NCBI GenBank assembly: GCA_003696765.1
Contig: RFFX01000050.1
Span: 12,894-76,893, forward strand
Length of the DNA: 64,000 bases
Reading direction: 5' to 3'
From: Zetaproteobacteria bacterium
GTDB lineage: Bacteria > Pseudomonadota > Zetaproteobacteria > Mariprofundales > J009
Below the pieces are notes generated by a model. That model had not been told where the DNA came from. It did not search any database and saw nothing but the letters and a program-made list of their open reading frames with translations. Shown here one piece after another: positions 7,548-58,224 of this stretch. The translations under genes were made by a program, and so were the position numbers. Positions within the stretch are counted from its first letter, which is position 1; every line of letters starts with the position of its first letter.

Positions 7548-7621
7548 CGCAGATCAGACCCCCAACCCTTCGTCCATGACACGGCCGAGCAAGAGCCGGC
7601 ATCCGCGGCCTCGGCGTACCG

Positions 7622-7638: not shown

Positions 7639-7728
7639 CGCTTGCAACCCTACGGTTTCGCTTGGCGATCGAGACCGGAATCGGAACACTCCCCTCCCGG
7701 CCGGGAACGGTGCCGCAGCAGCCTGCCC

Positions 7729-15709: not shown

Positions 15710-15721
15710 CCCCTCCACCCC

Positions 15722-16474
15722 TCAGGCGACGAAATCCCGTTGCAGCCCGCGCTCCACCGGCAGGCCGGCGATCAACTCCCCCTCCAGCCTCCGATGCCGG
15801 CCGAGCCAAGCGAGGAACTCCGGACGCAACAGCTCCGCGGTCTGTTCGTCGGCGGCAAAAAGCCGCAGGCGCAATGCCTCCTGCTCCCCCCCTTCCAGCG
15901 CAAAGGCGACCGCACCGAGATGGGCCAGATCGAGCCGGCCGTGGAGCAGGAAACGGCGGGCGTCACCCTGCCGTTCGATCACGCCGCGCGCCTGCCCCCC
16001 TCCCCCCTCATCCTCGACCACCATCCGGTTCATGTCCGCGCCGACCAGCCCCTGCAGCCCGCTGCCGTCGAGCCGCATCCATCCCCGCCGCGCACCCCCC
16101 TCCGCCCCGTCGTGCGCCGCCGTCGGAGCATCCCCCCCCTCGCGCCCTTTTCCCTTGCCGGTGGAGGCATCGACCTGCTGACGCAACATCTCCATCAGCA
16201 GCTGATGGGCCTGATGCTGATTCATGATGCGGAACTGGGCGGGCATCTTCTGCCCCAGGATCTCCAGCCACACCTCACCCATCGGCACGTTGGGCGGCAC
16301 CTCGGCGCGCAGCCGATAGCCGCCGATGATCAGCAGCGCCGACCCCGGCTCGCCGCCCGGCTCCAGACGGGCTTGCAGTACACTGCCGCTGGGCCACGGC
16401 AGAGTGTGGGGGCCCTCGGCGTTCCTGATCCCCTGGGGCATCCCCATCATCTGGGTGCCGAGGATCTCCATCAT
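15722..16474 (-). CDS. Hypothetical protein with a FliK C-terminal-like (hook-length control) segment
   Basis: A 250-aa protein. The C-terminal LDLAHLGAVAFALEGGEQEALRLRLFAADEQTAELLRPEFLAWLGRH resembles the FliK/Flg_hook motif (L.P..LG.v.v.........v.f.a......l......L...L). It lies directly upstream of the FlhB-C-like gene. Weak call. Confidence 0.45.
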   Translation of the reverse strand: MMEILGTQMMGMPQGIRNAEGPHTLPWPSGSVLQARLEPGGEPGSALLIIGGYRLRAEVPPNVPMGEVWLEILGQKMPAQFRIMNQHQAHQLLMEMLRQQVDASTGKGKGREGGDAPTAAHDGAEGGARRGWMRLDGSGLQGLVGADMNRMVVEDEGGGGQARGVIERQGDARRFLLHGRLDLAHLGAVAFALEGGEQEALRLRLFAADEQTAELLRPEFLAWLGRHRRLEGELIAGLPVERGLQRDFVA

Positions 16475-16546
16475 GGGGAATCTTCTCCCCGCACCGGGTC
16501 CATCCCTGGCGCTGCCGCCCCCAAGAGATCAAGGCGATTCATGGCC

Positions 16547-23133: not shown

Positions 23134-23382
23134 TCACCGATTCAGCTCCTCGACCTTGGCGACGTAGGCGTCGGTGGCGAGCAACACCCTGGACTTGAAG
23201 AGATCGAAGTCGCGCTGCAGCAGCCGCAGCTCCTTCGCCGATGCCCGGAAGGCATACTGCAGGCCGTCCTTGTAGCCGTTGGCGTAGGCCACGCGGATGA
23301 TGGCGTAGTCCGCCTGCCGCAGCGCCGACCAGGCGTAGCCGGCCCCGAAGCTGCAGGCCGCCACCAGCGCCAGCAGCAACAT
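23134..23382 (-). CDS. Small hypothetical protein with N-terminal lipobox-like signal (82 aa)
   Basis: MLLLALVAACSFGAGYAWSALRQADYAIIRVAYANGYKDGLQYAFRASAKELRLLQRDFDLFKSRVLLATDAYVAKVEELNR. It lies between the HAMP-like protein and flhA. The start is uncertain. Confidence 0.4.
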   Translation of the reverse strand: MLLLALVAACSFGAGYAWSALRQADYAIIRVAYANGYKDGLQYAFRASAKELRLLQRDFDLFKSRVLLATDAYVAKVEELNR

Positions 23383-23423
23383 CGCCGTCCGACCACCCGC
23401 ATCGCACCAGGAGCGAAGGCGCC

Positions 23424-24002
23424 TCACGCTCCATCCTCCCTGGTACGCATCCCACGCAACAGGTCGCGAATCGCCGCCAACCGGACCCCGGCCTCCTCGT
23501 CCTCGCACGCGCAGATCCTGCGCATCTCCGCCACGCGCAGCTCCCAGTCACGGTGGAGATCGAGCACGCAGCCGTAGAGCTCCTCCAGCGCATCACCGCG
23601 GCGCAGAGGAGGTGTCGGCCGGTCGAAGCGACCGGAAGCGATGTTCTCCAGCACCCGCCGGATGCGGAAGAGCGGACCGGCGACCCGGAACGACTCGAAG
23701 AGGCCGAAGAGGAGCGTCACCGCCACCACCACCGCGAGCGCCAGCAGCAGATAGGGCCACAGATGCACCACCATCCAGGAGAGGTCGGGCAGAGCATCGA
23801 AAGCCACTTCGGCCTCGGAGGAGAAGGGATCGGGCTGGGAGACCTCCTTCCCGAGCAGGGAGAGGATGAAGAGCACCCCGACCGTCGCCGTCACCACCAC
23901 CGACAGCACCATCAGCGTCAACTTCTTGACGAAACGGTATTGGAAGCGTGGAGCGATCCATACCCGGCGTCGTTGCGCGCTCCCCGGCAAAGCCGATCCC
24001 AT
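23424..24002 (-). CDS. Two-TM membrane protein with a HAMP-like cytoplasmic linker and no output domain
   Basis: The strong SD GGAAGGAGGG precedes the ATG at 24002. MGSALPGSAQRRRVWIAPRFQYRFVKKLTLMVLSVVVTATVGVLFILSLL ... LLLALAVVVAVTLLFGLFESFRVAGPLFRIRRVLENIASGRFDRPTPPLRRGDALEELYGCVLDL has a HAMP-like P...I..G......R..DE...L pattern. Confidence 0.55.
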   Translation of the reverse strand: MGSALPGSAQRRRVWIAPRFQYRFVKKLTLMVLSVVVTATVGVLFILSLLGKEVSQPDPFSSEAEVAFDALPDLSWMVVHLWPYLLLALAVVVAVTLLFGLFESFRVAGPLFRIRRVLENIASGRFDRPTPPLRRGDALEELYGCVLDLHRDWELRVAEMRRICACEDEEAGVRLAAIRDLLRGMRTREDGA

Positions 24003-24015
24003 CGCACCCTCCTTC

Positions 24016-24175
24016 CATGATCCGACCGCAAAACATCCGTCCGTGGACGTTTCGGCTTCACGGGAATCGAAGAGCACGGTCTTCGGATTCCCTTGCACAA
24101 CCGTCACTTGCATATGCAAGCTTCGGTTTTGCGCGGCACGCCAGCGCCGCGATGACCGCTTCTTGCGGGGCCATC
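24016..24175 (-). repeat. Mosaic repeat, full copy
   Basis: Reads catgatccgaCCGCAAAACATCCgtccgtGGAcGTTTcGGcttcacGGGAATCGAAGAgcacggTCTTCGgATTCCC..CTTGCAtatGCAAGcttcggTTTTGCGCGGCacgccaGCGCCGCGATGACCGCTTCttgcGGGGCCATC. It lies between flhB and the HAMP-like gene. Confidence 0.88.
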
Positions 24176-24273
24176 CTTCCATGGATGGTCCGCTCAGGCG
24201 GCCGTGGACGAAACCCCCGTCGATCCCCCGACAAATCGGGAGCATGACCGCATCACCGACGATGCACCACGCA

Positions 24274-25344
24274 TCACAGCATCTGTTTCATCCGGTAGAT
24301 CTCCGCCAGGATCACCGCCACCGCCTCGAACAGCTCTTCGGGGATCTCCTGGCCGATCTCGACGTGGGCGAACAAGGAACGTGCCAACGGCTTGTTCTCC
24401 CGGATCGGCACCCCGTGTTCGAGGGCGATCTCACGGATACGCTGCGCCAGCCGGTCCGCTCCCTTGGCCACCACCACCGGCGCGCCGCTGCCTCCCAATT
24501 CATATTTCAGTGCCACCGCATAGTGGGTCGGGTTGGTGATCACGACATCCGCCTTGGGCACGTCCTCCATCATCCGCCGCTGGGCCATCTCACGCTGCAG
24601 CTGCTTGATCTTGCTCTTGACCAGCGGATCGCCCTCGGTCTCCTTGTTCTCGTCCTTGATCTCCTTCATCGACATGCGCAGCGAGCGGAGGTACTCCCAC
24701 CGTTGGTAGAGGACGTCGGCCAGCGCCAGGGCCACGAATAGCGCGGCGACCATCGCCGCCATCCGCACCGTTCCGCGGGCCATGACGGCGCCGATCTGCG
24801 CCACATCCATCCGGATCCCCTCCACGGCCAAGGGAAGCATCGAGGCGATGAGGTACCAGCAGATCGCGCCGATCAGCACCAGCTTCAGCACCGACTTGAC
24901 CAGCTCGGCCAGCCCCTTGGAGGAGAAGAGACGCCCCAGACCGGAGATCGGGTTGATCCGGGAGAACTTGGGTTGCAACGTCTCGAGTGCAAAGACGGGG
25001 CCGGTGACCAGCACCGTCACCAGCATCCCGAGCGCCACCACCGGCAGCGCCACCGGCAGGACCATCAGGGCGATCTGGCCGGCCAGCGTGATCAACAGGT
25101 CGACCATCCCCTCCGGCGTCCAATCCACGTGGATCGACCCGGCCAGGAAGCGCTCCATCAGCCGGCTGCTGTGGCCGTAGATCCAGCCGCCGACGCCGGT
25201 GACCAGCAACGAGGCGATCATCAGGAAGGAGACGGCGGTGGAGGGCTCCTTGCTGTTGGGAACCTGCCCCTTCTCGCGCGCGTCGGAGAGCCGCTTGCTG
25301 GTCGGCTCTTCGGTCTGTTGGCTCTTGTCCTGCTCTTCGGCCAC
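24274..25344 (-). CDS. flhB: Flagellar export apparatus protein FlhB
   Basis: (GTG)AEEQDKSQQTEEPTSKRLSDAREKGQVPNSKE..., NPTH autocleavage site (VVITNPTHYAVALKY), and C-terminus PIRENKPLARSLF. Confidence 0.95.
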   Translation of the reverse strand: MAEEQDKSQQTEEPTSKRLSDAREKGQVPNSKEPSTAVSFLMIASLLVTGVGGWIYGHSSRLMERFLAGSIHVDWTPEGMVDLLITLAGQIALMVLPVALPVVALGMLVTVLVTGPVFALETLQPKFSRINPISGLGRLFSSKGLAELVKSVLKLVLIGAICWYLIASMLPLAVEGIRMDVAQIGAVMARGTVRMAAMVAALFVALALADVLYQRWEYLRSLRMSMKEIKDENKETEGDPLVKSKIKQLQREMAQRRMMEDVPKADVVITNPTHYAVALKYELGGSGAPVVVAKGADRLAQRIREIALEHGVPIRENKPLARSLFAHVEIGQEIPEELFEAVAVILAEIYRMKQML

Positions 25345-25356
25345 CGCGCCTCCCGC

Positions 25357-26516: not shown

Positions 26517-27824
26517 CTACTCCAGCGCCTCCAGCAGGGAGACCACCTCGGCGGAGAGCGGCGCGATGCGGTCTACCTCCTCGATCGCCCCCTGCACATC
26601 GCCGCTGTTGTACTTGGCCACCGCGCTGCGCGCCCGGCGGTGCACCTCGGCGTGCGGCCCCTCCAGCTGGACGAAGGCGCTCTTGGAGCCGTACTGCTTC
26701 TTGCCCGGGCCGTCGTACCACTTGCCCAGCCGACACTGGTGGTGGTCGACCACCTCGCCCTCGTCGATGTGGCCTCGGCCGAGCACCATGTCGACCAGCC
26801 GCTTCTTCCACAGCATGTGGTCGGTCTTGGCCAGCTGGATCACCGCATCGGTGATGGTGTAGTTGCTCATCGAGGCGAGATCGTTGCGCAGCTTGCCGTC
26901 CAGCTCGTCGGCGGTCGCCAGCGTCTCGTCGGCCAACCGCTTGAGATCGGCGGCGATGGAGGAGGTGGCGCTCACCCCCTCGGCGATCTCGGCGGATGCC
27001 TGCTTCTGCTCGGAGGAGGCGGCCTGCATGATCTGCATCTGCTCGTCCACCTCGAGCATGCCGCGCACGATCTCCTCCATCGAATCGCGCGACTGGCCGA
27101 GCGCTGCGGAGGAGCGCTTCACCGTCTGCTCGATCTGCTCGATCGCCTTGACGGTATGCTCGACGGCGACGTTGATCTCCCCGCTCTTCTCGGCGATGTC
27201 GTCGGCCGCCGCCCGCGACTGCTTGGAGAGCTCCTTCACCTCGCTGGCCACCACGGCGAAGCCTCGCCCCGCCTCTCCGGCACGCGCCGCCTCGATGGTG
27301 GCGTTGAGCGCCAGCAGGTTGGTCTGGTCGGAGATCTTGCGGATGGTGGCCAGCAGCAGCTCGATCTCGCGCGAGGTGGAGGCGAGCTCCTCGACCCGGG
27401 CGATGGCCTGCTCCATCTGGGCCACCGTCTCGTTCATCTGGGAGACCGCCTCGTCCAGCGTCCGCTGCCCCGACTCGACATGCTCCTTGGCGTTGGCGCT
27501 GATGGAGACCACCTCTTCGGTCCGCTCGGCCATGGTCGCCACCGTCGAGCTCATCTCCTCGGTGGCGGCGGCCATCGCCTCACTGCGTTCGGCCACCTGG
27601 CGGGTGGCCTGGTCGAGCTTGCCCATGGCGATGGTGGTCTCGAAACCGGCGGCGGTCGCCTCCACCGTCGTCTTGAGCTCCTGCAGCATGATGTGGTCGA
27701 GCCGCTCCATCGCCGCATTGCCCACCGCAGCCAAGGGATGACCGGGCGGCAGACGGTGGGTGAAGTCCCCCGCCTTGAGCGCCTCGAACAACTCGACGAT
27801 CTGCTGCTGTTCGGCTGCTTCCAC
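26517..27824 (-). CDS. Soluble methyl-accepting chemotaxis protein with a C-terminal CZB (chemoreceptor zinc-binding) domain
   Basis: No TM segment. MCP signalling hairpin: [52 protein letters not shown]-terminal CZB motif: HMLWKKRL...[10 protein letters not shown]...HAEVH. GTG start with the SD GAGGAGGGGAG. Confidence 0.9.
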
Positions 27825-27882
27825 ACTCCCCTCCTCTGGCGCCGCACCGTGCGCGTCGCGCCGCGTTTCGGGTGCGATTATG

Positions 27883-28092
27883 TCAAGTGTTGCGCTGCCT
27901 GCAAGTATTGATTCCGAGGATGGGATAGAGCGGGCAGAAGCGGATCAGCGCGGTCAGCCCCATCACCGCCCCGACGGCGATCGCCACCATGTTCCACGGC
28001 GCGCTCAACCCGGCCAGGGCGCCGACGGCGATCAGCACCAGCCCCACCACACCGCGCAACACCCTGTCGATTCCTCCAACGTTCGCATTCAT
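27883..28092 (-). CDS. DUF2892 (YgaP-type) small membrane protein
   Basis: [64 protein letters not shown] is the characteristic DUF2892 pattern (N....R...G.......FCP.Y...G..TC). The SD GGAAGGAGG precedes the ATG. Confidence 0.75.
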
Positions 28093-28140: not shown

Positions 28141-28421
28141 GAGCCGCACCCCGACATCGCATATACCCGGGCCGTCGCCTGCTCCACCCGGTCGGATCGG
28201 CTGCGCCCCCGTAGAGGCTTCCTTGCACGGGGCGGATCCTCTGCTAGCGTGGGACCGGTTTCCGTGACAATGTCACCGGCTGCCCCCCTTCCGGACGCTG
28301 CGGAGCCCTGCCCGCATCGAGCCAGTCGGGGCATACCCCCCTCCTCGTCGATGCATCCCCTCATTCCATAGGAAGGGGCGCGATCGCACCGGATCTCCGC
28401 TCTGGACTCGATTCAAGATTC

Positions 28422-30725
28422 GTGCATGAACTAACCGGAACCTACAGCCCCGTCGTGGTGGCGCTGTCGCTGCTGGTGGCCATCACCTCGGCCTTCGTCG
28501 CCATCTCGGTGGTCCCCCGCCTGCACGACCGCCGGGCCGACGGCCGTCGCACCGCCCTGTGGACGCTGGCCTTCGGCCTGAGCCTCGGCACCGGCATCTG
28601 GACCATGCACTTCGTCGCCATGCTCGCCTTCCGGCTGCCGGTGGCGGTGCGCTACGACATCACGATCACCGCGGCATCACTCTTCATCGCCATCGGCTTC
28701 TGCTCCCTCGGCGCCCTGCCGATGCGGCACGGCGGCGATCTGCGCGACGGCCGCCTGCTGCTGGTCGGAAGCGTGCTCGGCGCCGGCGTGGCGGCGATGC
28801 ACTACACCGGTATGGCGGCGATGCGGCTGCCGGCGGAGATGCACTACGATACGGCTCTGGTGCTGCTGTCGCTGCTCATCGCCGTCTCCGTCGCCACGGT
28901 GGCGCTCTGGATCGCCAACCGGCTGCGCGGAGTCGGGGTGCTCGACGAGTTGCCCTGGAAGACTGCCGCCGCGGTGGTCATGGGGCTGGCGGTGGCGGCG
29001 ATGCACTACACCGGCATGGCGGCGGTGCACTTCCTCGCTCTCGATGGCCAGCCGGCATCGGGCGGGCTCGACCGGACGCTGATGATCGTCGCGCTGACCG
29101 TGATCGCCATGCTGGTGCAGGGCGGCATCCTGATCAGCGCCGCGCTCGATCAGGCGCTGATGGCCCAGCGCAGGCTGCGCCACAGCGAGGCCGAGCGCAT
29201 GCGCATCCACACCATCGTCGAAACCAGTCCCGACTTCATCGCCATCGTCGATCCGACAGGGAAGATCCGTTACCTCAACCCCGCCGGCCACCATCTGGTC
29301 GGCCTGCCGGCGGAGGTGGATCCGCCGCTGCTGCGGGAATGCCTGCACCCCGACGAAGCCGACCGCCTGCAACAGGAGATCCTGCCGCAGCTGCAGCGCG
29401 AGGCCCGCTACCAGACCCGCCTCCGGCTGGCCCACCGCGACGGCTCGGAGATCCACACGCTCGCCGCCTTCACCACGCTTCCCGGCGGAGGGAGCGACGC
29501 GGGCAGCTTCTCGATCATGGCGCGGGACATCCGGCGGGAGATCGCCCGCCAGGAGAAGATGGAGCACACCCAGCGGCTGGAGAGCCTTGGCGTGCTGGCC
29601 GGCGGCATCGCCCACGACTTCAACAACATCCTCACCGCCATCCTGGGCAATGCAGCCATCGCCGAACGCAAGGCGCGTGCAACCAACGAAGATCTGGCCC
29701 GATACCTGAGCAACATCGTCCGCTCCAGCGAGCGGGCGGCCGATCTGTGCAAGCAGATGCTGGCCTACTCGGGCAAGGGGAAGTTCGTCGTGCAGCCGCT
29801 CGACCTGTCGCAGCTGGTCACCGACATCACCAAGCTGCTTGAGGTCTCCATCGGCAAATCGGTGGTGCTCAAGTACCGGCTGGCCGAGGGGCTGCCGCCG
29901 GTGGAGGCCGACGCCGCCCAGATCCAGCAGCTGATCATGAATCTGGTGATCAACGCCTCCGAGGCGATCGGCGAGAAGAGCGGGGTGATCACCGTCACCA
30001 CCGGGCTGATGCACGCCGATCGCGACTACCTGCGCGAGACCTGCCTCGACGAGGATGTGCCGGAGGGGCGTTATGCCTTCCTCGAGGTCGCCGACACCGG
30101 CTGCGGCATGGACGAAGCGACGCGGAAGCGGATCTTCGAACCCTTCTACACCACCAAGTTCACCGGCCGCGGGCTGGGCATGAGCGCAGTGCTCGGCATC
30201 GTGCGCGGCCACCACGGCACGATGAAGCTCTACACCGAACCCGGCGCGGGGACCACCTTCAAGGTGTTGCTGCCGGTCTCCACCCGGGTGGAACAGCCAT
30301 CGGCCGACCCCGCCGCGAATGGAGACGACACCGCCCCCCCATGGCGCGGCGAGGGAACGGTGCTGATCATCGACGATGAGGAGACGGTGCGCACATCGGC
30401 GGCGATGATGGTCGAGGCGCTGGGCTTCGACACACTTACCGCCGCCGATGGCAAGGAGGGGGTGGCCTGCTACCGCGCCCACCGAAAGGAGATCGTCGTC
30501 GTGCTGCTCGACATGACCATGCCGCGGCTCGACGGCAGGGGCTGCTTCCGCGAACTGCGCCGGATCGACAAGGATGTCCGGGTGATCCTCACCAGCGGCT
30601 ACAACGAAGAGGAGGTGACCAGCCACTTCGCCGGCAAGGGGCTGGCCGGCTTCATCCAGAAGCCCTACCGGCCGGAGCTGCTGGCCGAGCGGCTGCGCGC
30701 CGCGCTCGCCCGCCGCCCTGACTGA
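28422..30725 (+). CDS. Hybrid sensor histidine kinase with N-terminal MHYT membrane domain, PAS, HisKA, HATPase_c and receiver domains
   Basis: Three MHYT motifs (WTMHFVAMLAF, AAMHYTGMAAM, AAMHYTGMAAV). H-box LAGGIAHDFNNILTAI. N/G boxes NLVINASEA, DTGCGM, GRGLGMS. Receiver VLIIDDEETVR...VLLDMTMPRLDG...SGY. GTG start. Confidence 0.9.
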   Translation: MHELTGTYSPVVVALSLLVAITSAFVAISVVPRLHDRRADGRRTALWTLAFGLSLGTGIWTMHFVAMLAFRLPVAVRYDITITAASLFIAIGFCSLGALPMRHGGDLRDGRLLLVGSVLGAGVAAMHYTGMAAMRLPAEMHYDTALVLLSLLIAVSVATVALWIANRLRGVGVLDELPWKTAAAVVMGLAVAAMHYTGMAAVHFLALDGQPASGGLDRTLMIVALTVIAMLVQGGILISAALDQALMAQRRLRHSEAERMRIHTIVETSPDFIAIVDPTGKIRYLNPAGHHLVGLPAEVDPPLLRECLHPDEADRLQQEILPQLQREARYQTRLRLAHRDGSEIHTLAAFTTLPGGGSDAGSFSIMARDIRREIARQEKMEHTQRLESLGVLAGGIAHDFNNILTAILGNAAIAERKARATNEDLARYLSNIVRSSERAADLCKQMLAYSGKGKFVVQPLDLSQLVTDITKLLEVSIGKSVVLKYRLAEGLPPVEADAAQIQQLIMNLVINASEAIGEKSGVITVTTGLMHADRDYLRETCLDEDVPEGRYAFLEVADTGCGMDEATRKRIFEPFYTTKFTGRGLGMSAVLGIVRGHHGTMKLYTEPGAGTTFKVLLPVSTRVEQPSADPAANGDDTAPPWRGEGTVLIIDDEETVRTSAAMMVEALGFDTLTAADGKEGVACYRAHRKEIVVVLLDMTMPRLDGRGCFRELRRIDKDVRVILTSGYNEEEVTSHFAGKGLAGFIQKPYRPELLAERLRAALARRPD

Positions 30726-34594: not shown

Positions 34595-35947
34595 TCAACC
34601 GCGGTCCGGCACCGTCTCCTCACTGAGGATGCGCCACGGCTCCCCCTCGGCGGCGCGCACCAGATAGAGCCGTTTGGTGGTCCGGTCGCTGTAGTTGTCG
34701 GAGCGGTACTCCTGATGGAACTGCACCACCACCACCTCCCCCTCCGGCCATCGGTTGGGGTCGTGGATCATGGTGATGTCGGAGAGCGCCACGCGGATCA
34801 TCCGCTTGCCGCGGTTGATCCGCCGCTTGTACCACTTCCATTCGGCCAGCCGGAGGCGCCCCGAGCGGAAGGCGGGATGGTAGTGGCGCAGGTAGGCGTC
34901 GGTGTCGAGGCTGCTCCAGTCGCGCCGCCACGACTCGATCGCCTCGGCCACCGAGCGGCGCAGCGCCTCCCGCCGCGCCGGATCGTCGAAACGCAGATTC
35001 TCCCCCACCACCACCCAGCTCTTGCCGGGGAGGATGCGGGGCGCAAGCCGGATGAGCAGATCGTTGGGCAGGGAGAAGCAGCCCCGGGTGTCGCGCGGCG
35101 GACGCCGCCGGACCTGCGGTGCATAGCCGTGCAACCAGATGCCGTGGCCATCCTTGTGGTGGATCCGGTCGAGCGCGTTGGGATAGTCGATGGGGAAGGC
35201 GACCGGCCCGTAGCGCGGCGCCAGTTGCGCCCCCTCCAGCCGGCCGACGAAGCGGTAGACGCCGTCGGGGGTGCGGCCGTCCCCTTCGCGCTGCTTGTCC
35301 CCGGGGCGGGATCCGGTCACCACATAGCTGTCGACCAGCTTGCGCCATCCTCCGGCACCGTCGCGGACGAAGGCGAATAGGCGCGAGCGCGCCTTGTCCA
35401 CCAGGAAGACGTTGGCCACGTCGGGACCGAGCTGCAGCAGATCGACCGGACGGTTGAGCCGCCCGACCAGGTCGTCGCGCAGCCGCTCCAGCCGCACCTC
35501 CGCCTCACGCAACCAGGGGTCGAGCCGCGCCGAGGCGAGCCTGCGCCGCTCCCGCTCCAGCCCACGGCCGTAGTCGTCGGGCACCCGCCCCAGGGCGCGC
35601 AGCGCCGCGCGCCGATGGGCCTCGGCCTCAAGCAACCCGACCAGCGGGTCGTCGGAGGGGGCGCCGTCGAGCAGCCGCAACACCCGCTCCGGCCGGCCCA
35701 GCTTCAGCTCCAGCGTGGCACGCAACACCAGCCGCTCCTGCGGGGCGAGCGCCTCCACCCCGGGGGTGTCGCCGCGATCGAGAAACCGCGCCACCGGGCG
35801 CCAGGGATCCGCCCCCGCCTCCGCCGGGGCGGCGGGGGCCGCAACGACCAGCATCCACGACAGCAGCCATCCCGCAACCACGGCGGAGCACCCTCGGGGA
35901 GCGGGCAGCACGCTTCCCCTCTCCGCCACAACCCCAGCGTTCCTCAT
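34595..35947 (-). CDS. L,D-transpeptidase (YkuD) family protein with a C-terminal NTF2-like domain
   Basis: Signal-like N-terminus. Catalytic HGYAPQVRRRPPRDTRGCFSLPNDLL is the YkuD H...(S/T)xGC motif. The start ATG at 35947 forms a TGATG overlap with the upstream gene. Confidence 0.85.
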   Translation of the reverse strand: MRNAGVVAERGSVLPAPRGCSAVVAGWLLSWMLVVAAPAAPAEAGADPWRPVARFLDRGDTPGVEALAPQERLVLRATLELKLGRPERVLRLLDGAPSDDPLVGLLEAEAHRRAALRALGRVPDDYGRGLERERRRLASARLDPWLREAEVRLERLRDDLVGRLNRPVDLLQLGPDVANVFLVDKARSRLFAFVRDGAGGWRKLVDSYVVTGSRPGDKQREGDGRTPDGVYRFVGRLEGAQLAPRYGPVAFPIDYPNALDRIHHKDGHGIWLHGYAPQVRRRPPRDTRGCFSLPNDLLIRLAPRILPGKSWVVVGENLRFDDPARREALRRSVAEAIESWRRDWSSLDTDAYLRHYHPAFRSGRLRLAEWKWYKRRINRGKRMIRVALSDITMIHDPNRWPEGEVVVVQFHQEYRSDNYSDRTTKRLYLVRAAEGEPWRILSEETVPDRG

Positions 35948-37125
35948 CACTTCCGCGTCACCTCCCTGACGATCTTCCATCCCCCCTCCTCCCGGAGCAG
36001 CACCAGCTCCTTCCGGTCGACACTGCGGTACCTGCGGGAGCGGTAGGTTTGATCGAAGCGGGCCGTCGCCCGCCCCCCCTCGACCGACAGCCGCAGATGG
36101 TCGACCTTCACCGTGATCCTCCCCGCCCGGGCCAGCACCCGCCGCTTGTGCCGCTCCCAGGCGGCCCGGCTGCCGTGCCGCGGATGGAACCGTTTGCTGT
36201 AGAAAGAGAAATAGCGTTCGGGATCGCGCGACTCCCACGCCTTGCGCCACGCCTCGACCACCGCCCGGACCCCACCGGACCCCTCCGAGACGCCCGCCGG
36301 GGCGGCGGCTCCCTCCCCGCCCCCACCGGCCGGCGGCCGCCTGCCACCCGAGGTGAGGGATGGCGGCTGCGCACCGGTGTCGGCCGCCGCGATGCGATCC
36401 TTGCGCCCCGGCGCGGAGGATGGCGCAGGGGCCGGCGGATGCGCGGCGCGGGCCTTCGGCGGCGCCTCCGGCGCCGGCAGCGCGAGCGCGGGCGATGCGT
36501 CCGCCCGACGGCTGCCGCCGGCCGGGGTGAAGGGCGGGGCGAGCAGACGGGCGAGCAGCCGCTCCATCGCCGCGCCGTCACCGGCAAGACGGGCGAGCGA
36601 GCGGCGGCAGAGCAGCCCGGCCAGCCGATCGCGTTTGACCATACGTTCTGCCGCGTCACGCCGCGCCACCGCGCGGTAGAGCCCCTCGGCCTGCTCCATG
36701 TAGAGATCGGCCAGCTCCAGCTGCACCCGGGTGTCGCGCGGGGTGAGTGCCATCACCTTGCGCAGCTCCTCGGCGGCGGCCTCGTAGTCGCCGAGTGAAC
36801 GGTAGATCGCCGCCAGGTTGTGGTGCGGCTCGGGGTAGTCGGGATGGATGCGGATCACCTGCCGGAAGGCCTCGATCGCCTGCAGGATGCGTCCGTCGTG
36901 GGTCTGCAGCACGCCGAGCCGGAACCAGGCGCGCGCATCGTCGGGATTGGCCCGGATCGCCCGATCGAGCGCCTGCTCGTCGTAGGCCGGCGCCGCAACA
37001 CCGCGCCCCGCGCAGAGGATCAGCAACGCGGCCGCGACCGATGCCAGGCGCGAAATCCCCGCGCCCCCCTCCTCACCGAACCGTTTGCCCGACGAAGGCA
37101 ACGAGATGGTCGTCGGCGCCCTCAC
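35947..37125 (-). CDS. Secreted TPR-repeat protein with a C-terminal NTF2-like domain related to that of the downstream L,D-transpeptidase
   Basis: TPR units (ARAWFRLGVLQTHDGRILQAIEAFRQVIRIHPDYPEPHHNLAAIYRSLGDYEAAAEELRKVMALTP). The C-terminus VVEAWRKAWESRDPERYFSFYSKRFHP parallels AIESWRRDWSSLDTDAYLRHYHPAF of the next gene. A GTG start at 37125 with the SD GGAGGG is chosen; the upstream part of the ORF only translates a repeat. Confidence 0.7.
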   Translation of the reverse strand: MRAPTTISLPSSGKRFGEEGGAGISRLASVAAALLILCAGRGVAAPAYDEQALDRAIRANPDDARAWFRLGVLQTHDGRILQAIEAFRQVIRIHPDYPEPHHNLAAIYRSLGDYEAAAEELRKVMALTPRDTRVQLELADLYMEQAEGLYRAVARRDAAERMVKRDRLAGLLCRRSLARLAGDGAAMERLLARLLAPPFTPAGGSRRADASPALALPAPEAPPKARAAHPPAPAPSSAPGRKDRIAAADTGAQPPSLTSGGRRPPAGGGGEGAAAPAGVSEGSGGVRAVVEAWRKAWESRDPERYFSFYSKRFHPRHGSRAAWERHKRRVLARAGRITVKVDHLRLSVEGGRATARFDQTYRSRRYRSVDRKELVLLREEGGWKIVREVTRK

Positions 37126-37140
37126 GAACCCTCCATATGA

Positions 37141-37207
37141 CTCGCAAACCTCGGATTTGCGCATCCGTCCATGGCCGCGATGATGGTTTCGCAAGAAACC
37201 ATCATCG
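37141..37207 (-). repeat. Mosaic repeat, truncated (part of C + D + E)
   Basis: Reads ctcGCAAaCCtcggatttGCGCatCCgtccatGGCCGCGATGATGGTTTCgcaaGAAACCATCATCg. The TGA of the 37202 gene lies in the outer E arm. Confidence 0.8.
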
Positions 37208-38140
37208 ATGCAACAGCGCCGTCAATGGGCGCAGCAGCCGAATCTCTCCATCGCCCAGCCGACGCAGGAAGGCGAGCGTCCGCCGCCGGGGATGGCCGAT
37301 CACCAGACAGGAGCCGCGGCGGCGGGCGATGTCCACCGCATGGCGCCAGGCGGCGGCGATCGCCCCGTCGTCGTCGACATGGTCGAGGAAGACCTGCCGC
37401 TCGGCCCAGCGCAGCCCGGCGCGCCGCGCCTCCTCCGCGGCCACCGATGCGGCCGTGGTGCGCGAATCGACGAAGAAGAGATGGTGGGCGCGGCAGAGGG
37501 CCATGACCAGCCGCATGGCGTGACGGTCGGCCGTCAGCAGCGAGCCCATGTGGTTGTTGATCCCGGCGACGAAGGGCACCATGGAGAGATCCCGCTCGAA
37601 ACGGGCGCGCAACGTGGCATCGTCCATCCCCGTGCGGAGGAAGGAGGAGTCAAGCCGCTCCCGCAATGCCGGGTTCTCCGGCTCCATCGGGAGATGGAGC
37701 ATCACCGTGCGTCCGGCCCTCCGGGCCTCGCGGGCGGCCCGGGCGGCGTGCGGCGCCTGCGGCAGGACCGAGACGGTCAGCGGAAAGGGAAGGGCCAGCA
37801 GCGCGCGCGCCATCTGCAGGTCGTAGCCGACGTCGTCGATGATCAACGCGATCCCTCCACCCCTGCGACCGGGGGCGGCGCGACGGGCGAGAGGCGGCCG
37901 GGGCACCATCCGGGCCGGCGGCCCCTGCGGCGGCATGCGCGAGAAGTCCTCGAAGAGCGGTCGGCCGGCCGGACCGAGCAGCGACCGACTCCGGGAGGAA
38001 GGCTTCCCGCCGCTCGGGGCGGAGGTCCGCGGTGCGGCCGGCGGCCAGGCCAGCCACAACAGCAGCGCAAGCAGGGCGAGCAGACCGGAGATGACCCACC
38101 GTCGCGGCAGCGCGCCCCGACGGCGACGGCGGAAAGCCAA
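37202..38140 (-). CDS. Divergent polysaccharide deacetylase family protein (YibQ-like)
   Basis: TM anchor, then IALIIDDVGYDLQMARALLALPFPLTVSVLPQAPHAARAAREARRAGRTVMLHLPMEP...GINNHMGS...FFVDSRTT, the YibQ family pattern. Apparent TTG start directly after the ctpA stop. Confidence 0.85.
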   Translation of the reverse strand: MAFRRRRRGALPRRWVISGLLALLALLLWLAWPPAAPRTSAPSGGKPSSRSRSLLGPAGRPLFEDFSRMPPQGPPARMVPRPPLARRAAPGRRGGGIALIIDDVGYDLQMARALLALPFPLTVSVLPQAPHAARAAREARRAGRTVMLHLPMEPENPALRERLDSSFLRTGMDDATLRARFERDLSMVPFVAGINNHMGSLLTADRHAMRLVMALCRAHHLFFVDSRTTAASVAAEEARRAGLRWAERQVFLDHVDDDGAIAAAWRHAVDIARRRGSCLVIGHPRRRTLAFLRRLGDGEIRLLRPLTALLHR

Positions 38141-49783: not shown

Positions 49784-50161
49784 CTACCGGCGGCCCCCCT
49801 CCTCCAGCGCCCGCGCCACCCCATCGAGCAGCTCGTCGAAATCGATCGGCTTGGTGATGAAGCCGTCGAACCCCTCGCGCAGGATGCGCTCGCGCTCACC
49901 GACCATCACCGAGGCGGTCAGCGCCAGGATGGGAATCGAGCGGGTCGCCGCATCCGCCTTGAGCCTGCGCGTCGCCTCCACCCCATCCATCACCGGCATG
50001 CGCAGATCCATCAGGATCAGATCCGGCCGCCGCCGGGCGACGAACTCCAGCGCCTGCTGCCCATTCTCGGCCTGCGCCACCTCGTACTCCTCCAGCGTGA
50101 GCAGCTCCGCCGCCAGATCCCGATTGCTCGGCACATCGTCCACGATCAAGATCAACGCCAT
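49784..50161 (-). CDS. Stand-alone CheY-like response regulator receiver
   Basis: MALILIVDDVPSNRDLAAELL...PDLILMDLRMPVMDGVEATRRLK...PILALTASVM...GFDGFITKPI. All receiver signature residues (DD, D, T, K) are present. Confidence 0.9.
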   Translation of the reverse strand: MALILIVDDVPSNRDLAAELLTLEEYEVAQAENGQQALEFVARRRPDLILMDLRMPVMDGVEATRRLKADAATRSIPILALTASVMVGERERILREGFDGFITKPIDFDELLDGVARALEEGGRR

Positions 50162-50228: not shown

Positions 50229-53705
<3,477 letters not shown>

Positions 53706-53808: not shown

Positions 53809-55686
53809 TCAACCCCGCCCGGCGATCACCTCACGAATGGTACGGTCCAGCCGGTCGAAGCGGAAGGGCTTGCTCAGCACCGGAATATCGGCCAGCGCCG
53901 CGTCACGCCCCTGGAAGAGCCGCTCCTTGTCGTAGCCGGTGGCGAAGAGGATCGGCTGATCGGGCGCCACCTCGCGGATCATGGCGGCCAGCCGCAAGCC
54001 GTCGATGTGGGGCATCACCACGTCGAGCAGCACCAGATCGTACCCGCCCGCCCGGCCGCGGTAGAGCGCCCACGCCTCCTCGCCGTCGGCCGCGGTGCAC
54101 ACCCGGTAGCCCATCTCCTCCAGCACCTCGGCCGTACTGGCGCGTACGCCAGGGTTGTCGTCGGCCAGCAGGATCAGCGGCGCGGCGGCCATGCGCGCCT
54201 CCCCGACCGCACCCGCCTCCGCCTCCCGCGCCGGACACTCCCCTCCGGCGTCGTGGCCGACCAATGGCAGGTAGATGTGGAAGGCGGTGCCGAGGTTGCT
54301 CCGGCTCTCCACCTCGATGATGCCGCCGTGGCTCTGGACGGCGCCGTAAACCATGGAGAGGCCGAGCCCGGTCCCCTTTCCCTCCTCCTTGGTGGTGAAG
54401 AAGGGGTCGAAGATCTGATTGAGCAGCTCGGCGGGGATGCCGATGCCGTTGTCGCGCACCGTCAGATGGACGAACCAGGCCCCCTCCCCCACCCGGTGAG
54501 GATGACGGGCGCGGAAGTCGTCGTCCGGCTCGTAGCAGGCCAGCACCACCTCGATCTCCGGCCGCTCCCGCCCGGCGACGGCGTCGCGCGCGTTGTTGAG
54601 CAGGTTCATCACCACCTGCTGCAGTTGGGTGGCGTCGCCGCGGACGACCAACTGTTCGGCCGGGATGGTGTAGCGGAAGCAGACGTTCTCCGGGATGGCC
54701 ACCCGGGCCAGCTTGACCGCCTCCTTGAGGAAGGAGGTGAAGGGGATCTCCTGCATCTCCACCACCCCCTTGCGGGCGAAGGCGAGCAGCTGGGCGATCA
54801 TCTCGCCGGCGCGGGCGCAGATCGCCTCCATCTGGGCGATGCGGTTGTAGCAGGGATCCCGTTTGTCGATCCGGTTGGCGAGCAGGTAGAGGTTGCCCGA
54901 GAGCCCGGCGAGCATGTTGTTGAAGTCATGGGCGATGCCGCCGACCAGCGTGCCGATCGACTCCATCTTGGAGGATTGGCGCAACTGCTCCTCCAGCAAC
55001 TCCTGCCGGCTGATGTCGGAGAAGACGCCGACCAGATGGGACGGCCTACCGCTGCGGTCGTAGACGGTGGTGATCGAGAGATGTTCGGGGTAGATATCGC
55101 CGTTCTTGCGCCGGTTCCACAGCTTGCCCGACCAGCGCCCCTCCTCGCGGATGGCGCGCCACATCTCGCGGTAGAAGGCGGTATCCTGCCGCCCCGACTT
55201 GAGGATCGCCGGCGTCTTGCCGATCGCCTCCTCGGCGCTGTAACCGGTCACCGTGCAGAAGGCCGGGTTGACCTGGATGATCACCCCGTTGGGGTCGGTG
55301 ACGATCACCCCGTCCTGGGTGTTCTCCACCACCTCGGAGGCGAGACGCAGCCGCTCCTCCAGCTCGCTGCGGCTGAGCGACTCGCGGAAGGCCAGCCCGT
55401 AGCTCATCAGGATCTCGGAGAGGATGCGGCTGCCGGTGGTGAGCAGCGTCCGGCAGTCATGGTCGGGCAGACGCTCGCGCAGCGCGATCATGGCGCAATG
55501 GTGCATGTCGGCGATCTGCTCCGGCGGCACCCGAGCCGCCACCATCTCGCGGCCGAACTGCTGCGCCTGGTGGAGCAGCGCCTCGTCGCCGCCGGCGCTG
55601 TAATCGGTGAGCAGTGCGAGGTAGCGCTTGCGCAGGGTGTCCGGGCTCAAACCGGACCGGCCGGGCCCAGGAACCGCATGACCCAT
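53809..55686 (-). CDS. Hybrid sensor histidine kinase with an N-terminal RsbU_N-like domain, PAS, HisKA, HATPase_c and receiver
   Basis: The N-terminus LRKRYLALLTDYSAGGDEALLHQAQQFGREMVAARVPPEQIADMHHCAM...ILSEILMSYGLAFRE parallels the B. subtilis RsbU N-terminal domain (YQAQKFSRKTIEHQIPPEEIISIH...FLIEVMIGYGMAYQE). PAS VVENTQDGVIVTDPNGVIIQVNPAFCTVTGYSAEEAIGK. H-box GGIAHDFNNML. Receiver LILLADDNPGVR...LVLLDVVMPHIDG. Confidence 0.9.
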   Translation of the reverse strand: MGHAVPGPGRSGLSPDTLRKRYLALLTDYSAGGDEALLHQAQQFGREMVAARVPPEQIADMHHCAMIALRERLPDHDCRTLLTTGSRILSEILMSYGLAFRESLSRSELEERLRLASEVVENTQDGVIVTDPNGVIIQVNPAFCTVTGYSAEEAIGKTPAILKSGRQDTAFYREMWRAIREEGRWSGKLWNRRKNGDIYPEHLSITTVYDRSGRPSHLVGVFSDISRQELLEEQLRQSSKMESIGTLVGGIAHDFNNMLAGLSGNLYLLANRIDKRDPCYNRIAQMEAICARAGEMIAQLLAFARKGVVEMQEIPFTSFLKEAVKLARVAIPENVCFRYTIPAEQLVVRGDATQLQQVVMNLLNNARDAVAGRERPEIEVVLACYEPDDDFRARHPHRVGEGAWFVHLTVRDNGIGIPAELLNQIFDPFFTTKEEGKGTGLGLSMVYGAVQSHGGIIEVESRSNLGTAFHIYLPLVGHDAGGECPAREAEAGAVGEARMAAAPLILLADDNPGVRASTAEVLEEMGYRVCTAADGEEAWALYRGRAGGYDLVLLDVVMPHIDGLRLAAMIREVAPDQPILFATGYDKERLFQGRDAALADIPVLSKPFRFDRLDRTIREVIAGRG

Positions 55687-55919
55687 CTCCTTGATCTATA
55701 AGTATAAAATATGGGGAGGGCAGACCATACCATGAGAGAGGAGTTCGATCCCGCAGAGGCCATCGACCATCCCCGCAGGAACGGATAGCTGCCCGCGAAT
55801 CGAGCGGGCCCCTCCCGTGTAGGCACCGGCGATGGCGCCCAACCACCGCCGGCATCGTTCGGGGAACGGAGGCCCCTGCTACGATTGCGCCTCGCCACCG
55901 CCTGCAAGCCCGTAACGAC

Positions 55920-56870
55920 TCAGTGGAAGGTGAACCGCTCCCGGGTGAAGAGCCGGTCGCAGATCTCCACCACCCGCGGATCGAAGCGGCTGCCGCTCCC
56001 CTTGCGGATCTCCTCCAGCGCGGTGGCGATGTCCAGCGCCGCCCGGTAGGGGCGCTGCGAGATCATCGCCTCCACCGTGTCGGCCACCGAGATGATGCGC
56101 GACTCGAGCAGGATCTCCTCACCCGCAAGCCCCAGGGGATACCCCTTCCCGTCGAGCCGCTCGTGGTGCTGGCGGGCGATCTCGGCGATCGGCCAGGGCG
56201 AGTCGATATCCTTGAGCATGTCGTAGCTCACCTGCGGATGGGCCCGCACCAGGTCGATCTCCTCCGGCGCCAGCTTGCCCGGCCGGGCCAGCGTCTCCGG
56301 CGGCACCCGCATCATGCCGACGTCGTGCAGCGAGGCGGCCACCCGCAGCCCCTCGAGCCGATCCTCGTCCAGCCCCAGCCGCTCGGCGATGGCCACGGCC
56401 AGTTGCGCCACCCGCCGCTGATGGGCGACGGCGAGCACATCCTTGCTCTCCTGCAGGGAGTTGATCGCCTCCAGCGTGTCGCCCAGGGCATGCTTGAGCT
56501 TCCTATAGTTGCGCCGCAGCGTCTCATCGGCCTCCACCCGGGCGTGCAGTGCGCGGAAGGCGGCGCCGAAGGCGGCCATCACCTCCATCAGGAAGCGGTC
56601 GGACTCCATAGCATCGGCATCTTCCACCATGCGCAGCGCCCGCATGTGGAACATCATCGCCTCCTCCGGCGAGAGGCGGCTGCGCACCATCTCCTTGCCC
56701 ATCTCGTAGGCGGCGAGCAGCGACGCCTCGCCCGGGGAGTCGAGATGGGCGCGCAACTGCGCGCCGTAGCGGGAGGCCATCTCCTCCAGCAGACGGGCGT
56801 GGGGAAGCTCCGTGCCGTGTTCGCGCACCACGATCGGCCAGAGCGCCGAACGGCGCATCCGCCTGCTCAT
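55920..56870 (-). CDS. HD-GYP domain protein (putative c-di-GMP phosphodiesterase) with an N-terminal RsbU_N-like domain
   Basis: The N-terminus LLAAYEMGKEMVRSRLSPEEAMMFHMRAL...FLMEVMAAFGAAFRA is RsbU_N-like. The HD-GYP core reads AASLHDVGMMRVP...HHERLDGKGYPLGL. The ATG at 56870 forms an ATGA overlap with the upstream gene. Confidence 0.88.
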   Translation of the reverse strand: MSRRMRRSALWPIVVREHGTELPHARLLEEMASRYGAQLRAHLDSPGEASLLAAYEMGKEMVRSRLSPEEAMMFHMRALRMVEDADAMESDRFLMEVMAAFGAAFRALHARVEADETLRRNYRKLKHALGDTLEAINSLQESKDVLAVAHQRRVAQLAVAIAERLGLDEDRLEGLRVAASLHDVGMMRVPPETLARPGKLAPEEIDLVRAHPQVSYDMLKDIDSPWPIAEIARQHHERLDGKGYPLGLAGEEILLESRIISVADTVEAMISQRPYRAALDIATALEEIRKGSGSRFDPRVVEICDRLFTRERFTFH

Positions 56871-57322
56871 CGCCGCGCCCCCACCGCGACGACCGGCACA
56901 CCGCTGCCGTCGAGGCATGTGATCTCCACCCGCGTCCCCGCCTCGCCGCTCTCCACCGAGAAGTGGTCCGCCACCCGACGCACGCCGACCAGCCCCCCGC
57001 CGAGCAGATCGCACCGCTGGTCGGGACGGTCGTGCAGCACCCAGTCCATCTCTCCGATCCCCGGCCCGTCGTCGCTGCAGCAGATCCGGACGCCGTCGCG
57101 CCCGTCGACCTCGCACAGCTCGGCGCGGCAGTGGCCGCCGCCGGCGTGTTTGAGCACGTTCTCCGCCAGCTCGGTGGCGCACATCACCACCCGCGCCTGA
57201 TCGGCCAGGTTCATCCCCACCTGCTGGGCCAGCATCCGTACCTGGCGGCGGAAGGCGATGAGATCCTCCATGCAGGAGAGCTCCAGCTCCGCATGGAGCA
57301 GAGGATTCCGCTTCCTGTTCAT
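56867..57322 (-). CDS. RsbT-like anti-sigma regulatory factor / switch serine kinase (HATPase_c, GHKL)
   Basis: A 151-aa protein. DQARVVMCATELAENVLKHAGGG ... GVRICCSDDGPGIGEM ... LLGGGLVGVRRVADHFSVESGEAGTRVEI aligns with B. subtilis RsbT (DQARITTAISELARNIYLYAGKG ... GLKIIAEDQGPGIPDI ... GLGAGLPGVKRLMDEFSLNSVAGEGTEI). Confidence 0.8.
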   Translation of the reverse strand: MNRKRNPLLHAELELSCMEDLIAFRRQVRMLAQQVGMNLADQARVVMCATELAENVLKHAGGGHCRAELCEVDGRDGVRICCSDDGPGIGEMDWVLHDRPDQRCDLLGGGLVGVRRVADHFSVESGEAGTRVEITCLDGSGVPVVAVGARR

Positions 57323-57498
57323 ATCCCCACCCCGAGTAGATCGATCGCCACCGAAGCCGGGCCGGCGGCGGTCGGCACCATAGCGGCGGCGCCATAAGAT
57401 GCAAACGTAAAGCCGACTCATTTTCACGGAGTTACCATGGCGCGATCCCCGGCGCGATCCCCCTTTACCCGGTGCTCCCTCTCCGCTAGCGTGGCAGG

Positions 57499-58220
57499 AT
57501 GGAACCCTCATCCACCTGCTTCATCACCGCCGTCGACACCGACGCCGGCAAGAGCTTCCTCGCCGGGCTGCTCTACCGGGCGCTGCGCAGGCGCGGCGTG
57601 GCCGCCGCGGCGCTCAAGCCGGTGGCCTGCGGCGTGAACGGGGAAGGGGTCAACCCCGACGTGGCGCGGCTTCGCGCCCTGCAACCCGAGGCGGAGGAGA
57701 TCAACTTCCACACCACCCGGGCCCCGCGGGCGCCGCTCTTCGCCGGGCCGGTGGCGCGCGGGGAGCTGCTCGACTGGTGCCGCCGGAAGACGGCGCGGCC
57801 CGGTGTCACCCTGATCGAAGGGGTGGGTGGGCTGATGGTGCCGTTGGCCGAGGGCTTCACCCAGCTCGACTGGATCCTCTCTCTGCCGAAGGCGCTCGTC
57901 GTCCTGGTGGTTCCCGCCCGCCTGGGCTGCCTGAGCCAGATGTTGACCCATCTGAGCCTGCTCGACGCCCTCGACCGCCGCCCCTGGCTGGTGGTCAACT
58001 GCATCGACCAGGACGCCCTCTCCTTCGGGAAGGAGTGCCTGCAGGCGGCCGATAGCTGGTTCCCCTGGGTGCCGGCGGAGCTGCTGCCGCCGGAGGCCGA
58101 CGACTGCCCCGCCCTGACCGACCGGCTCTGCCGCCCGCCGGCCCCACCGGTTGCAACGGTCCGGCCGCGTCCCTACATACCCGGCCGTCCACCATACCAA
58201 GCGGAGGTAAATCCCACACG

Positions 58221-58224
<4 letters not shown>
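57499..58224 (+). CDS. bioD: ATP-dependent dethiobiotin synthetase BioD
   Basis: CFITAVDTDAGKSFLAGLL is a P-loop of the GTDTxVGKT type. LIEGVGGLMVPL corresponds to the EGAGG motif. The product size is appropriate. Its stop overlaps the htpG start (ATGA). Confidence 0.75.

Follow-up and report, generated by a model that had tools for sequence, protein, structure and literature searches.

A three-gene operon in a 64-kb stretch of Zetaproteobacteria DNA (contig RFFX01000050.1 of assembly GCA_003696765.1; the whole stretch is called the window) encodes a small RsbT-type GHKL switch protein, here named T, followed by an HD-GYP protein and a hybrid histidine kinase that both begin with an RsbU_N docking domain. 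We propose that this trio is a self-contained signaling operon of stressosome-output origin which has shed RsbR, RsbS and RsbX, and in which T docks on both targets with no stressosome gate; in our judgment the proposal has about an even chance of being correct. Docking of T on the RsbU_N domains of both enzymes, predicted from homology, residue conservation and obligatory gene coupling, we regard as probable. The components, the docking logic and RsbU_N outputs other than PP2C are already known. The stressosome-less operon, the two RsbU_N targets per T and the divergent T subfamily are new. So far the trio is known from metagenome-assembled genomes (MAGs) of Zetaproteobacteria and from metagenomes. 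The sequence in view comprised 64 kb of a 92.5-kb MAG contig and 2.5–20-kb pieces of other genomes. The features of the operon are the following (aa, amino acids; nt, nucleotides).

57323..57498, no strand, divergent intergenic region between T and a bioD-like gene, upstream limit of the operon
56867..57322, minus strand, T, divergent RsbT-family GHKL switch protein, 151 aa (HATPase_c_2, RsbT similarity)
55920..56870, minus strand, RsbU_N-HD-GYP protein, predicted cyclic di-GMP (c-di-GMP) phosphodiesterase, 316 aa (Pfam)
56559..56771, minus strand, RsbU_N docking domain of the HD-GYP protein, aa 34-104 (PF08673)
55971..56456, minus strand, HD-GYP catalytic domain, aa 139-300 (HD_5 1.3e-39, HD 3.9e-20)
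55687..55919, minus strand, spacer between the HD-GYP and kinase genes, 233 nt, with an AT-rich patch and an AAGGAG Shine-Dalgarno sequence before the kinase start
53809..55686, minus strand, RsbU_N-PAS-HisKA-HATPase-REC hybrid histidine kinase, third gene of the trio, 625 aa (Pfam)
55390..55629, minus strand, RsbU_N docking domain of the kinase, aa 20-99 (PF08673 4.7e-12, 46.3 bits)
55003..55335, minus strand, predicted flavin-type PAS sensor domain, aa 118-228 (PDB sequence matches)
53836..54174, minus strand, C-terminal receiver of the hybrid kinase, aa 505-617 (Response_reg 7e-21)

We reread the sequence and its open reading frames (ORFs), and the coordinates, the lengths, the ATGA overlap and the 233-nt gap of the three genes in the original prediction were all exact. 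The domain calls were run against Pfam profiles and scored above the thresholds except for HisKA. The window proteins are deposited as RMH51178-RMH51184. The T stop codon and the HD-GYP start codon share ATGA (GCG CGG CGA TGA and ATG AGC AGG in the two frames), and a Shine-Dalgarno-like run, GGGGTGGGG, stands ahead of the ATG of T at 57322. The spacer 55687-55919 is closed by the AT-rich patch CATATTTTATACTTATAGATCAAGGAG in a genome of 69% GC, and may contain an internal promoter. The operon promoter is presumably in the intergenic region 57323-57498; no sigma-70 consensus was found there, and a scan of the cluster for promoter and terminator consensus sequences was unproductive. An Rfam scan of the window gave one tRNA only and no match in the spacer.

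The same three genes were found in the same order in at least eight other loci, among them L001 (GCA_054013635.1), L005 and L008, L006, L007, L010, L011 and L013, and incomplete versions in L002 (Mariprofundales) and L003. L007 is a Mariprofundales MAG, and the named sources of the trio are MAGs of Zetaproteobacteria. Loci were reached through the contigs of relatives, the full-length HD-GYP protein being a productive query. A word-indexed search with the RsbU_N profile returned 2 proteins and missed the self matches, and a metagenome scan with the T alignment returned one locus, L005. The T and HD-GYP genes overlap by 1 or 4 nt in every locus showing both genes. The kinase gene comes third, after a 4-nt overlap or a short gap (6–66 nt) in other loci as compared to 233 nt in the window. 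The flanks are unrelated from locus to locus (bioD/htpG, ArsR-RND efflux, HAD hydrolase, formate/nitrite transporter, PLD-like gene). The side-by-side encoding of two RsbU_N targets, pointed out in the original prediction for the window, is thus a conserved arrangement across the trio loci. In L005 (7128-8683) and L010 (1324-3150) the kinase gene is split by frameshifts, from either pseudogenization or assembly error.

To look for stressosome genes we combined Pfam on the ~45 genes of the window with locally built hidden Markov models (HMMs) of stressosome-type STAS and RsbX-type PP2C proteins, run on all six-frame ORFs. Neither approach detected a STAS or PP2C gene within the 64-kb window, and at E<=1 the HMMs matched nothing in the window or the trio loci. 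As positive controls they scored strongly in L004, L009 and L012 (1e-48 to 1e-101 in L009 and L012). The flanks of the trio loci encode no STAS or PP2C protein, and linkage to RsbR, RsbS or RsbX was absent in 7/7 loci with a visible upstream side. The claimed absence of RsbR, RsbS and PP2C nearby holds in the window and in every one of these related loci.

T itself is an RsbT-type protein, as had been proposed. It matched HATPase_c_2 in Pfam (8.6e-11, 42.4 bits vs. a cutoff of 27.4) and aligned with Bacillus subtilis RsbT at 36% identity over 118 aa (E 1e-21; 1e-20 by BLASTP), with no BLASTP match to RsbW or SpoIIAB. The B. subtilis RsbU sequence used agrees with the PDB alignment of the RsbU N-domain, and the RsbT sequence carries R19, R23, N24, D78 and D92 as in PMC12143880 and PMC11821858. 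BLASTP matches of T to the T-type domains of the Desulfobacterales locus L004 ranged from 1e-10 to 1e-16; one of these domains is encoded next to an RsbS gene, and the other two are parts of fusions with PP2C or kinase domains. A PDB sequence search with T alone gave weak histidine-kinase matches and no RsbT chain. In an AlphaFold2 model of T with a predicted local distance difference test score (pLDDT) of 80, the nearest folds were SpoIIAB and RsbW. The N-box residues E51 and N55, the G1 motif D84xGxG and the G2 motif G108xGLxG are invariant across the aligned orphan T sequences, D84 being the equivalent of B. subtilis RsbT D78. RsbT binds RsbU through R19, R23 and N24 and contacts the linker through D92 (PMC12143880). 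R25 and R29 of T correspond to R19 and R23 and are invariant in orphan T sequences, and an acidic residue, D or E, always occupies the D92 position.

The T proteins of the trio form a divergent group. Stressosome-linked T proteins (L009, L012, L004 and B. subtilis) share 41–56% identity with one another across phyla, whereas the main orphan T clade is only 25–37% identical to them. A lid motif DG[FY][ST]T is common to the stressosome-linked RsbTs compared (our own observation on five canonical sequences, not a published definition). It is replaced in the main orphan clade by [DE]-R-x-D plus one extra residue, and the lid of L013 T differs too. The main clade is further marked by a VVMC[AV]TEL N-box helix and a C-terminal tail. 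The L013 T (661-1113), which has the trio context, is 43–45% identical to canonical T proteins and carries an 'LATAVSEL' N-box helix; judged by its sequence, it looks like an evolutionary intermediate from canonical to orphan T. T is the fastest-evolving gene of the cluster, with 57% identity between the window and L001 as compared to 73–85% for its neighbors. Close relatives of T fell into 4 clusters in an index of 5.8 billion proteins. A scan of GTDB species-representative genomes with the T alignment gave the Desulfobacterales cluster L004 only and matched no trio genome. That partner-switching cluster (4649-8825 of MAG contig JABXJW010000095.1) encodes an RsbR-like fragment, RsbS and RsbT, as well as one RsbT-like domain fused to PP2C and another fused to HisKA-HATPase-REC-REC.

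A cysteine switch via C48, C65 and C82 of T, which looked invariant in the first alignments, was also considered and dropped as the main explanation. C65 is also present in the canonical T of L009 and L012, C48 is missing in the L013 orphan, and B. subtilis RsbT has A, I and A at the three sites, which belong to its core.

Both downstream proteins start with bona fide RsbU_N domains, with 46.9 bits for the HD-GYP protein (PF08673, 3.2e-12, cutoff 25.5) and 46.3 bits for the kinase. A profile of the N-terminal domain searched against the whole PDB returned RsbU N-domain entries only (2J70 5e-12, 1W53 2e-11, 2J6Z and 2J6Y; range 5e-12 to 3e-11). The two paralogues of the window are 32% identical to each other. 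B. subtilis RsbU contacts RsbT through E24, Y28, I74 and I78. All 11 sequences examined keep the E24 equivalent, which both paralogues share together with the helix-4 motif E-V-M-x-x-[FY]-G-x-A-F-R; at the positions of I74 and I78 the trio domains have M/S and A/M.

The metal and motif residues of the HD-GYP domain are all conserved. Across 11 members of the clade there is no variation at H182, D183, H211, H235, H236, E237, G241, G243, Y244 or P245, and the HD, H and HHExxDGxGYP motifs predict an HD-GYP c-di-GMP phosphodiesterase. A Foldseek search with the model of this protein returned only HD-GYP-domain matches, including 4MCW, 9RBZ and 4R8Z. The AlphaFold2 monomer model has helices at 24-44, 48-63, 68-81 and 87-114 (pLDDT 80–90), followed by a low-confidence helix at 116-141. 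Four helices and a low-confidence helical linker leading into the catalytic domain fit the bundle-plus-flexible-linker picture of RsbU. The RsbU_N-HD-GYP protein is represented by 12 clusters (P0007-P0018); after these the score drops sharply, from 306 bits to 235, and the matches are HD-GYP proteins whose inputs are PAS, GAF or REC. Many such proteins share 45–56% identity with the catalytic domain. Ahead of the RsbU_N domain lies a conserved N-terminal extension (aa 1-25, 56796-56870, minus strand; 'aLWPmLvSdHGetL'). Its W11, P12 and G19 are invariant in 11 sequences, and its AlphaFold2 confidence is <35. The extension is missing from the kinase paralogue, from the RsbU_N-HD-GYP protein of L012 and from B. 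subtilis RsbU.

The domains of the PAS-HisKA-HATPase-receiver hybrid kinase were likewise borne out (PAS 1.8e-20, HATPase_c 5.5e-24, REC 7e-21). The HisKA assignment comes from the H-box AHDFNN, the profile match being weak and under the cutoff (0.0043, 17.5 bits). In the translation the N, G1 and G2 boxes read LLNNARDA, DNGIGI and GTGLGL, the receiver aspartate lies in LLDVVMP, and the NCBIfam match was PRK13557/CckA-like. The best PDB matches of its PAS domain were MmoS PAS-A (3EWK, 3.4e-31) and NifL PAS1 (9QQ6, 1e-18; 2GJ3, 2e-17). It shares the W-x-G-x-x-x-N-R-R-K motif with the MmoS and NifL PAS domains, and the LOV cysteine is absent (GKTPAILKSG). This points to a PAS of the MmoS/NifL flavin adenine dinucleotide (FAD) type with putative flavin binding, which makes it plausible that the trio itself takes in a redox or O2 signal.

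We examined the relatives of the RsbU_N domain by HMMER against 1.84 billion cluster representatives; 1,180 of these matched at E<=1e-3, of which 276 reached E<=1e-10. Among the best 115 cluster representatives, analyzed with Pfam, RsbU_N was detected in 113/115, HATPase_c in 64/115, HisKA in 54/115, PAS in about 55/115, REC in 21/115, HD_5 in 8/115, SpoIIE in 7/115 and GGDEF in 1/115. RsbU_N-PAS-kinase is the commonest architecture among these nearest relatives; RsbU_N-HD-GYP is found in a minority but has turned up in several lineages. In L009 the genes for RsbRD_N-STAS, STAS, two HATPase_c_2 proteins and a SpoIIE protein are followed directly by the gene of the nearest outgroup RsbU_N protein, P0005. 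In the metagenome contig L012 an RsbU_N-HD-GYP protein, P0134, is encoded directly behind RsbR, RsbS, RsbT and RsbX. Heinz et al. (2022; PMC9237108) reported eleven architectures downstream of stressosome genes, among them GGDEF, EAL, HDc and HisKA, and RsbU_N is present in some of the eleven. Kinases and GGDEF/HD outputs next to rsbRST(X) have been described already (PMC9237108; PMC12143880, a 2025 eLife paper of the Bradshaw laboratory). The fusion of RsbU_N to a two-component kinase and to a c-di-GMP phosphodiesterase had been put forward as unusual. Neither is: kinase domains far outnumber SpoIIE among the nearest relatives and have precedents in the literature, and the HD-GYP fusion also occurs behind a canonical RsbR-RsbS-RsbT-RsbX module. 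Given the L009 and L012 contexts, RsbU_N fused to HD-GYP or kinase is an ordinary stressosome output. Because P0005 and P0134 sit directly downstream of RsbR-RsbS-RsbT-RsbX, we consider the trio to derive from this stressosome-output family.

In B. subtilis, RsbT binds the four-helix-bundle dimer and the linker of RsbU, orders the linker and activates the dimeric effector (PMC12143880). By analogy, T would bind the RsbU_N dimers and linkers of both enzymes, and its docking would set c-di-GMP hydrolysis and the kinase/phosphorelay output together. T would not be sequestered by a stressosome, a step proposed with less confidence from the absence of stressosome genes in cis and the divergence of T. 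The input would come from inside the module, through the flavin PAS of the kinase (redox/O2) and/or the nucleotide or kinase state of T. There may be competition between the two RsbU_N proteins for one T, as in a two-target partner switch. A stronger version, which we hold only tentatively and think rather doubtful, is a complete partner switch with no stressosome in the genome. In it, T would be handed between the two RsbU_N sites by the PAS redox state and/or its own ATP or kinase state, with reciprocal outputs.

Several observations weigh against a stressosome-free trio in which T docks on both targets. At the position of RsbU Y28 the HD-GYP protein has L and the kinase has H; in B. subtilis RsbU, Y28I abolishes RsbT binding. 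Orphan T sequences carry M, A, S, E or T where RsbT has N24. The HD-GYP model has a mean pLDDT of 63 and is poor outside the N-domain, so its linker geometry is unreadable, and the kinase PAS was assigned to the FAD type by sequence similarity alone. The absence of RsbR, RsbS and RsbX holds at the locus scale and is unproven genome-wide. The term 'orphan', used for the RsbT-like gene in the original prediction, accordingly applies to the locus, with no STAS or PP2C gene in the window, and not to the genome, most of which lies beyond view. Finally, the intact kinase motifs of T suggest that it still has a phospho-substrate, which could be RsbS or RsbR encoded elsewhere.

The last two points lead to the main rival, a stressosome in trans: RsbR, RsbS and RsbX encoded elsewhere in the genome would sequester T and release it on stress, and the operon would be the T-plus-outputs half of a conventional RsbRST(X) system. 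Full conservation of the kinase motifs is what one expects if RsbS/RsbR is still phosphorylated, canonical RSTX loci encode the nearest relatives of the RsbU_N domain and of the RsbU_N-HD-GYP architecture, and all sources are MAGs that are incomplete and were seen at locus scale. The motifs cut both ways, however, and fit stressosome-independent RsbT signaling equally well. A stressosome in trans is further opposed by the lack of R/S/X linkage in all seven loci with a visible upstream side, while rsbRSTX is a tightly conserved module (PMC9237108), by the low identity of the main orphan T clade to stressosome-linked T proteins and its replaced lid motif, and by the constant translational coupling of the T gene to a target gene and not to rsbS. 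On balance we think it unlikely, though well worth keeping in mind. The same catalytic motifs would also suit a T acting mainly as a protein kinase on its two neighbors or on itself, with phosphorylation or autophosphorylation in place of docking as the signal. According to a paper that summarizes the Moorella work, the downstream cyclase is phosphorylated by the RsbT homologue and Vibrio RsbT autophosphorylates (PMC4976288; PMC11821858), and stressosome-independent signaling in B. subtilis needs RsbT kinase activity (PMC11821858). Yet we found no conserved Ser/Thr phospho-acceptor in the RsbU_N domains or in the N-terminal extension of the HD-GYP protein, where the Ser of the 'LVSDHG' motif is Arg in the window protein, and RsbU in B. 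subtilis is activated through RsbT binding (PMC12143880). A kinase role of this sort appears improbable to us.

Universal translational coupling suggests stoichiometric co-production of T with the HD-GYP protein, and no sequestering partner is encoded nearby. Both would agree with T as a constitutive structural subunit that stabilizes the enzyme dimers, leaving regulation to the PAS and receiver domains with no switch at all. Such a subunit would have no need of the invariant ATP-binding motifs, which are nevertheless kept across lineages <40% identical, and we give this explanation little credence. Nothing beyond the docking being a prediction speaks for a fortuitous co-location of the three genes with a GHKL protein unrelated to the RsbU_N domains. 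In all loci in view, and among unrelated flanks, the genes keep their order and T overlaps the HD-GYP gene, which makes chance co-location highly improbable.

We compared the trio with known systems. Like the B. subtilis RsbT-RsbU pair, it combines a small RsbT-type GHKL protein with RsbU_N four-helix bundles and helical linkers, and the equivalents of RsbT R19, R23, D78 and D92 and of RsbU E24 are conserved. Unlike that pair, its outputs are an HD-GYP protein and a hybrid kinase instead of PP2C, with two targets per T; RsbR/RsbS/RsbX, RsbV/RsbW and sigma-B are not linked; and the equivalents of RsbU Y28 and RsbT N24 as well as the lid of T are changed. RsbT and RsbU_N have been reported to control a Moorella GGDEF cyclase, within a general RsbU_N-linker-effector model (PMC12143880). 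The Moorella MtR/MtS/MtT/MtX-MtG system, the proteobacterial RSTX outputs (kinase/GGDEF/EAL/HD), L009 and L012 all place an RsbT-type gene next to RsbU_N enzymes, as the trio does. These modules encode RsbR/RsbS/RsbX directly upstream, which the trio never does in any locus seen, whereas the trio has two RsbU_N targets in fixed order and a T of the divergent clade. The HD-GYP proteins of the RpfG family, PmGH (4MCW) and DvhD (9RBZ) have REC, PAS or GAF inputs, and the input of the trio HD-GYP protein is an RsbU_N docking domain. The kinase PAS resembles the FAD-PAS sensors of NifL and MmoS, except that the trio kinase stacks RsbU_N before it. In Staphylococcus aureus, RsbU occurs without RsbRST: there is an RsbU_N but no RsbT, and signaling runs through the classical PP2C-sigma-B pathway. 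This natural half of the RsbT/RsbU_N pair without a stressosome is the reverse orphan to the trio. In our literature search we found no paper in which RsbT or RsbU_N is connected to HD-GYP, or to Zetaproteobacteria, in the fashion of the trio.

What senses stress is an open question in the RsbT pathway. RsbT and its kinase activity suffice for stress-inducible signaling in stressosome-deleted B. subtilis, and the authors ask whether RsbT itself senses and whether other species do likewise (Khadka et al., 2025; PMC11821858). Signaling from RsbT to RsbU_N without RsbR/RsbS depends there on D78, which is kept in T as D84. That strain is engineered from a host that normally has a stressosome, whereas the trio is natural and conserved and has non-PP2C outputs. 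Because stressosome genes are absent from the operon, the trio is a natural test case for RsbT signaling alone. If the stronger version of the proposal is right, it would be a natural minimal system showing that RsbT-family proteins can be primary signal processors without RsbR/RsbS. The trio would also offer a compact three-protein system in vitro, with c-di-GMP hydrolysis and kinase autophosphorylation as easily measured read-outs. The 'exchangeable toolkit' model (PMC12143880) would be widened from PP2C, GGDEF and kinases to HD-GYP, with one activator for two effectors, and a redox-linked c-di-GMP control point would be indicated in Zetaproteobacteria.

On the upstream side of the operon lie a divergent bioD-like gene and then htpG, mlaC and a yhdP-like gene. 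The first had been named bioD and is borne out as bioD-like (57499-58224, plus strand; AAA_26 2.4e-17; TIGR00347 69 bits, under the 83-bit cutoff). Downstream, two accessory genes follow.

50229..53705, minus strand, HAMP-GAF-HisKA-HATPase-REC-GGDEF(degenerate) kinase, 1158 aa (Pfam)
49784..50161, minus strand, single-domain receiver, 125 aa (Response_reg 2.9e-30)

The giant kinase with its degenerate GGDEF domain and the receiver had been described correctly. The A-site of the GGDEF domain is GESRF (AESRF in L001, 13359-16790), and the I-site RxxD (RGGD) is kept five residues upstream and aligns with PleD RAID/GGEEF. Encoded just downstream of the HD-GYP gene, the domain may serve as a receptor for c-di-GMP. 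Membership of this pair in a single circuit with the trio did not stand: the two genes accompany it only in the window and in L001, the nearest relative of the window, and their absence in L006, L007, L008, L011 and L013 makes them lineage-specific and places them outside the core. Past the receiver come convergent glnB and nadE on the opposite strand, and then flagellar genes. Motility control, suggested earlier from this proximity, has no synteny support because the flagellar neighborhood is not conserved and nadE/glnB lie in between.

We also noted other features of the window. Two adjacent proteins encoded at 34598-37221 (minus strand) end in Cds6_C NTF2-like domains, one with a YkuD L,D-transpeptidase domain and the other with TPR repeats. 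Two ORFs of 137 and 287 aa without a Pfam match lie between flhA and flhB (23137-24287, minus strand). A 101-aa ORF (15419-15721, minus strand) matches the FlhB C-terminal domain only (profile positions 261-334); it adjoins a 268-aa protein without a Pfam family (15725-16528, minus strand), and a full-length flhB is at 24277-25356. A methyl-accepting chemotaxis protein with a C-terminal CZB domain (26520-27944, minus strand) is encoded directly upstream of fliQ/fliR/flhB. Near the flagellar region, a further sensory hybrid kinase of MHYT-PAS-HisKA-HATPase-REC architecture, whose MHYT sensor is a membrane domain, is encoded at 28248-30722 (plus strand).

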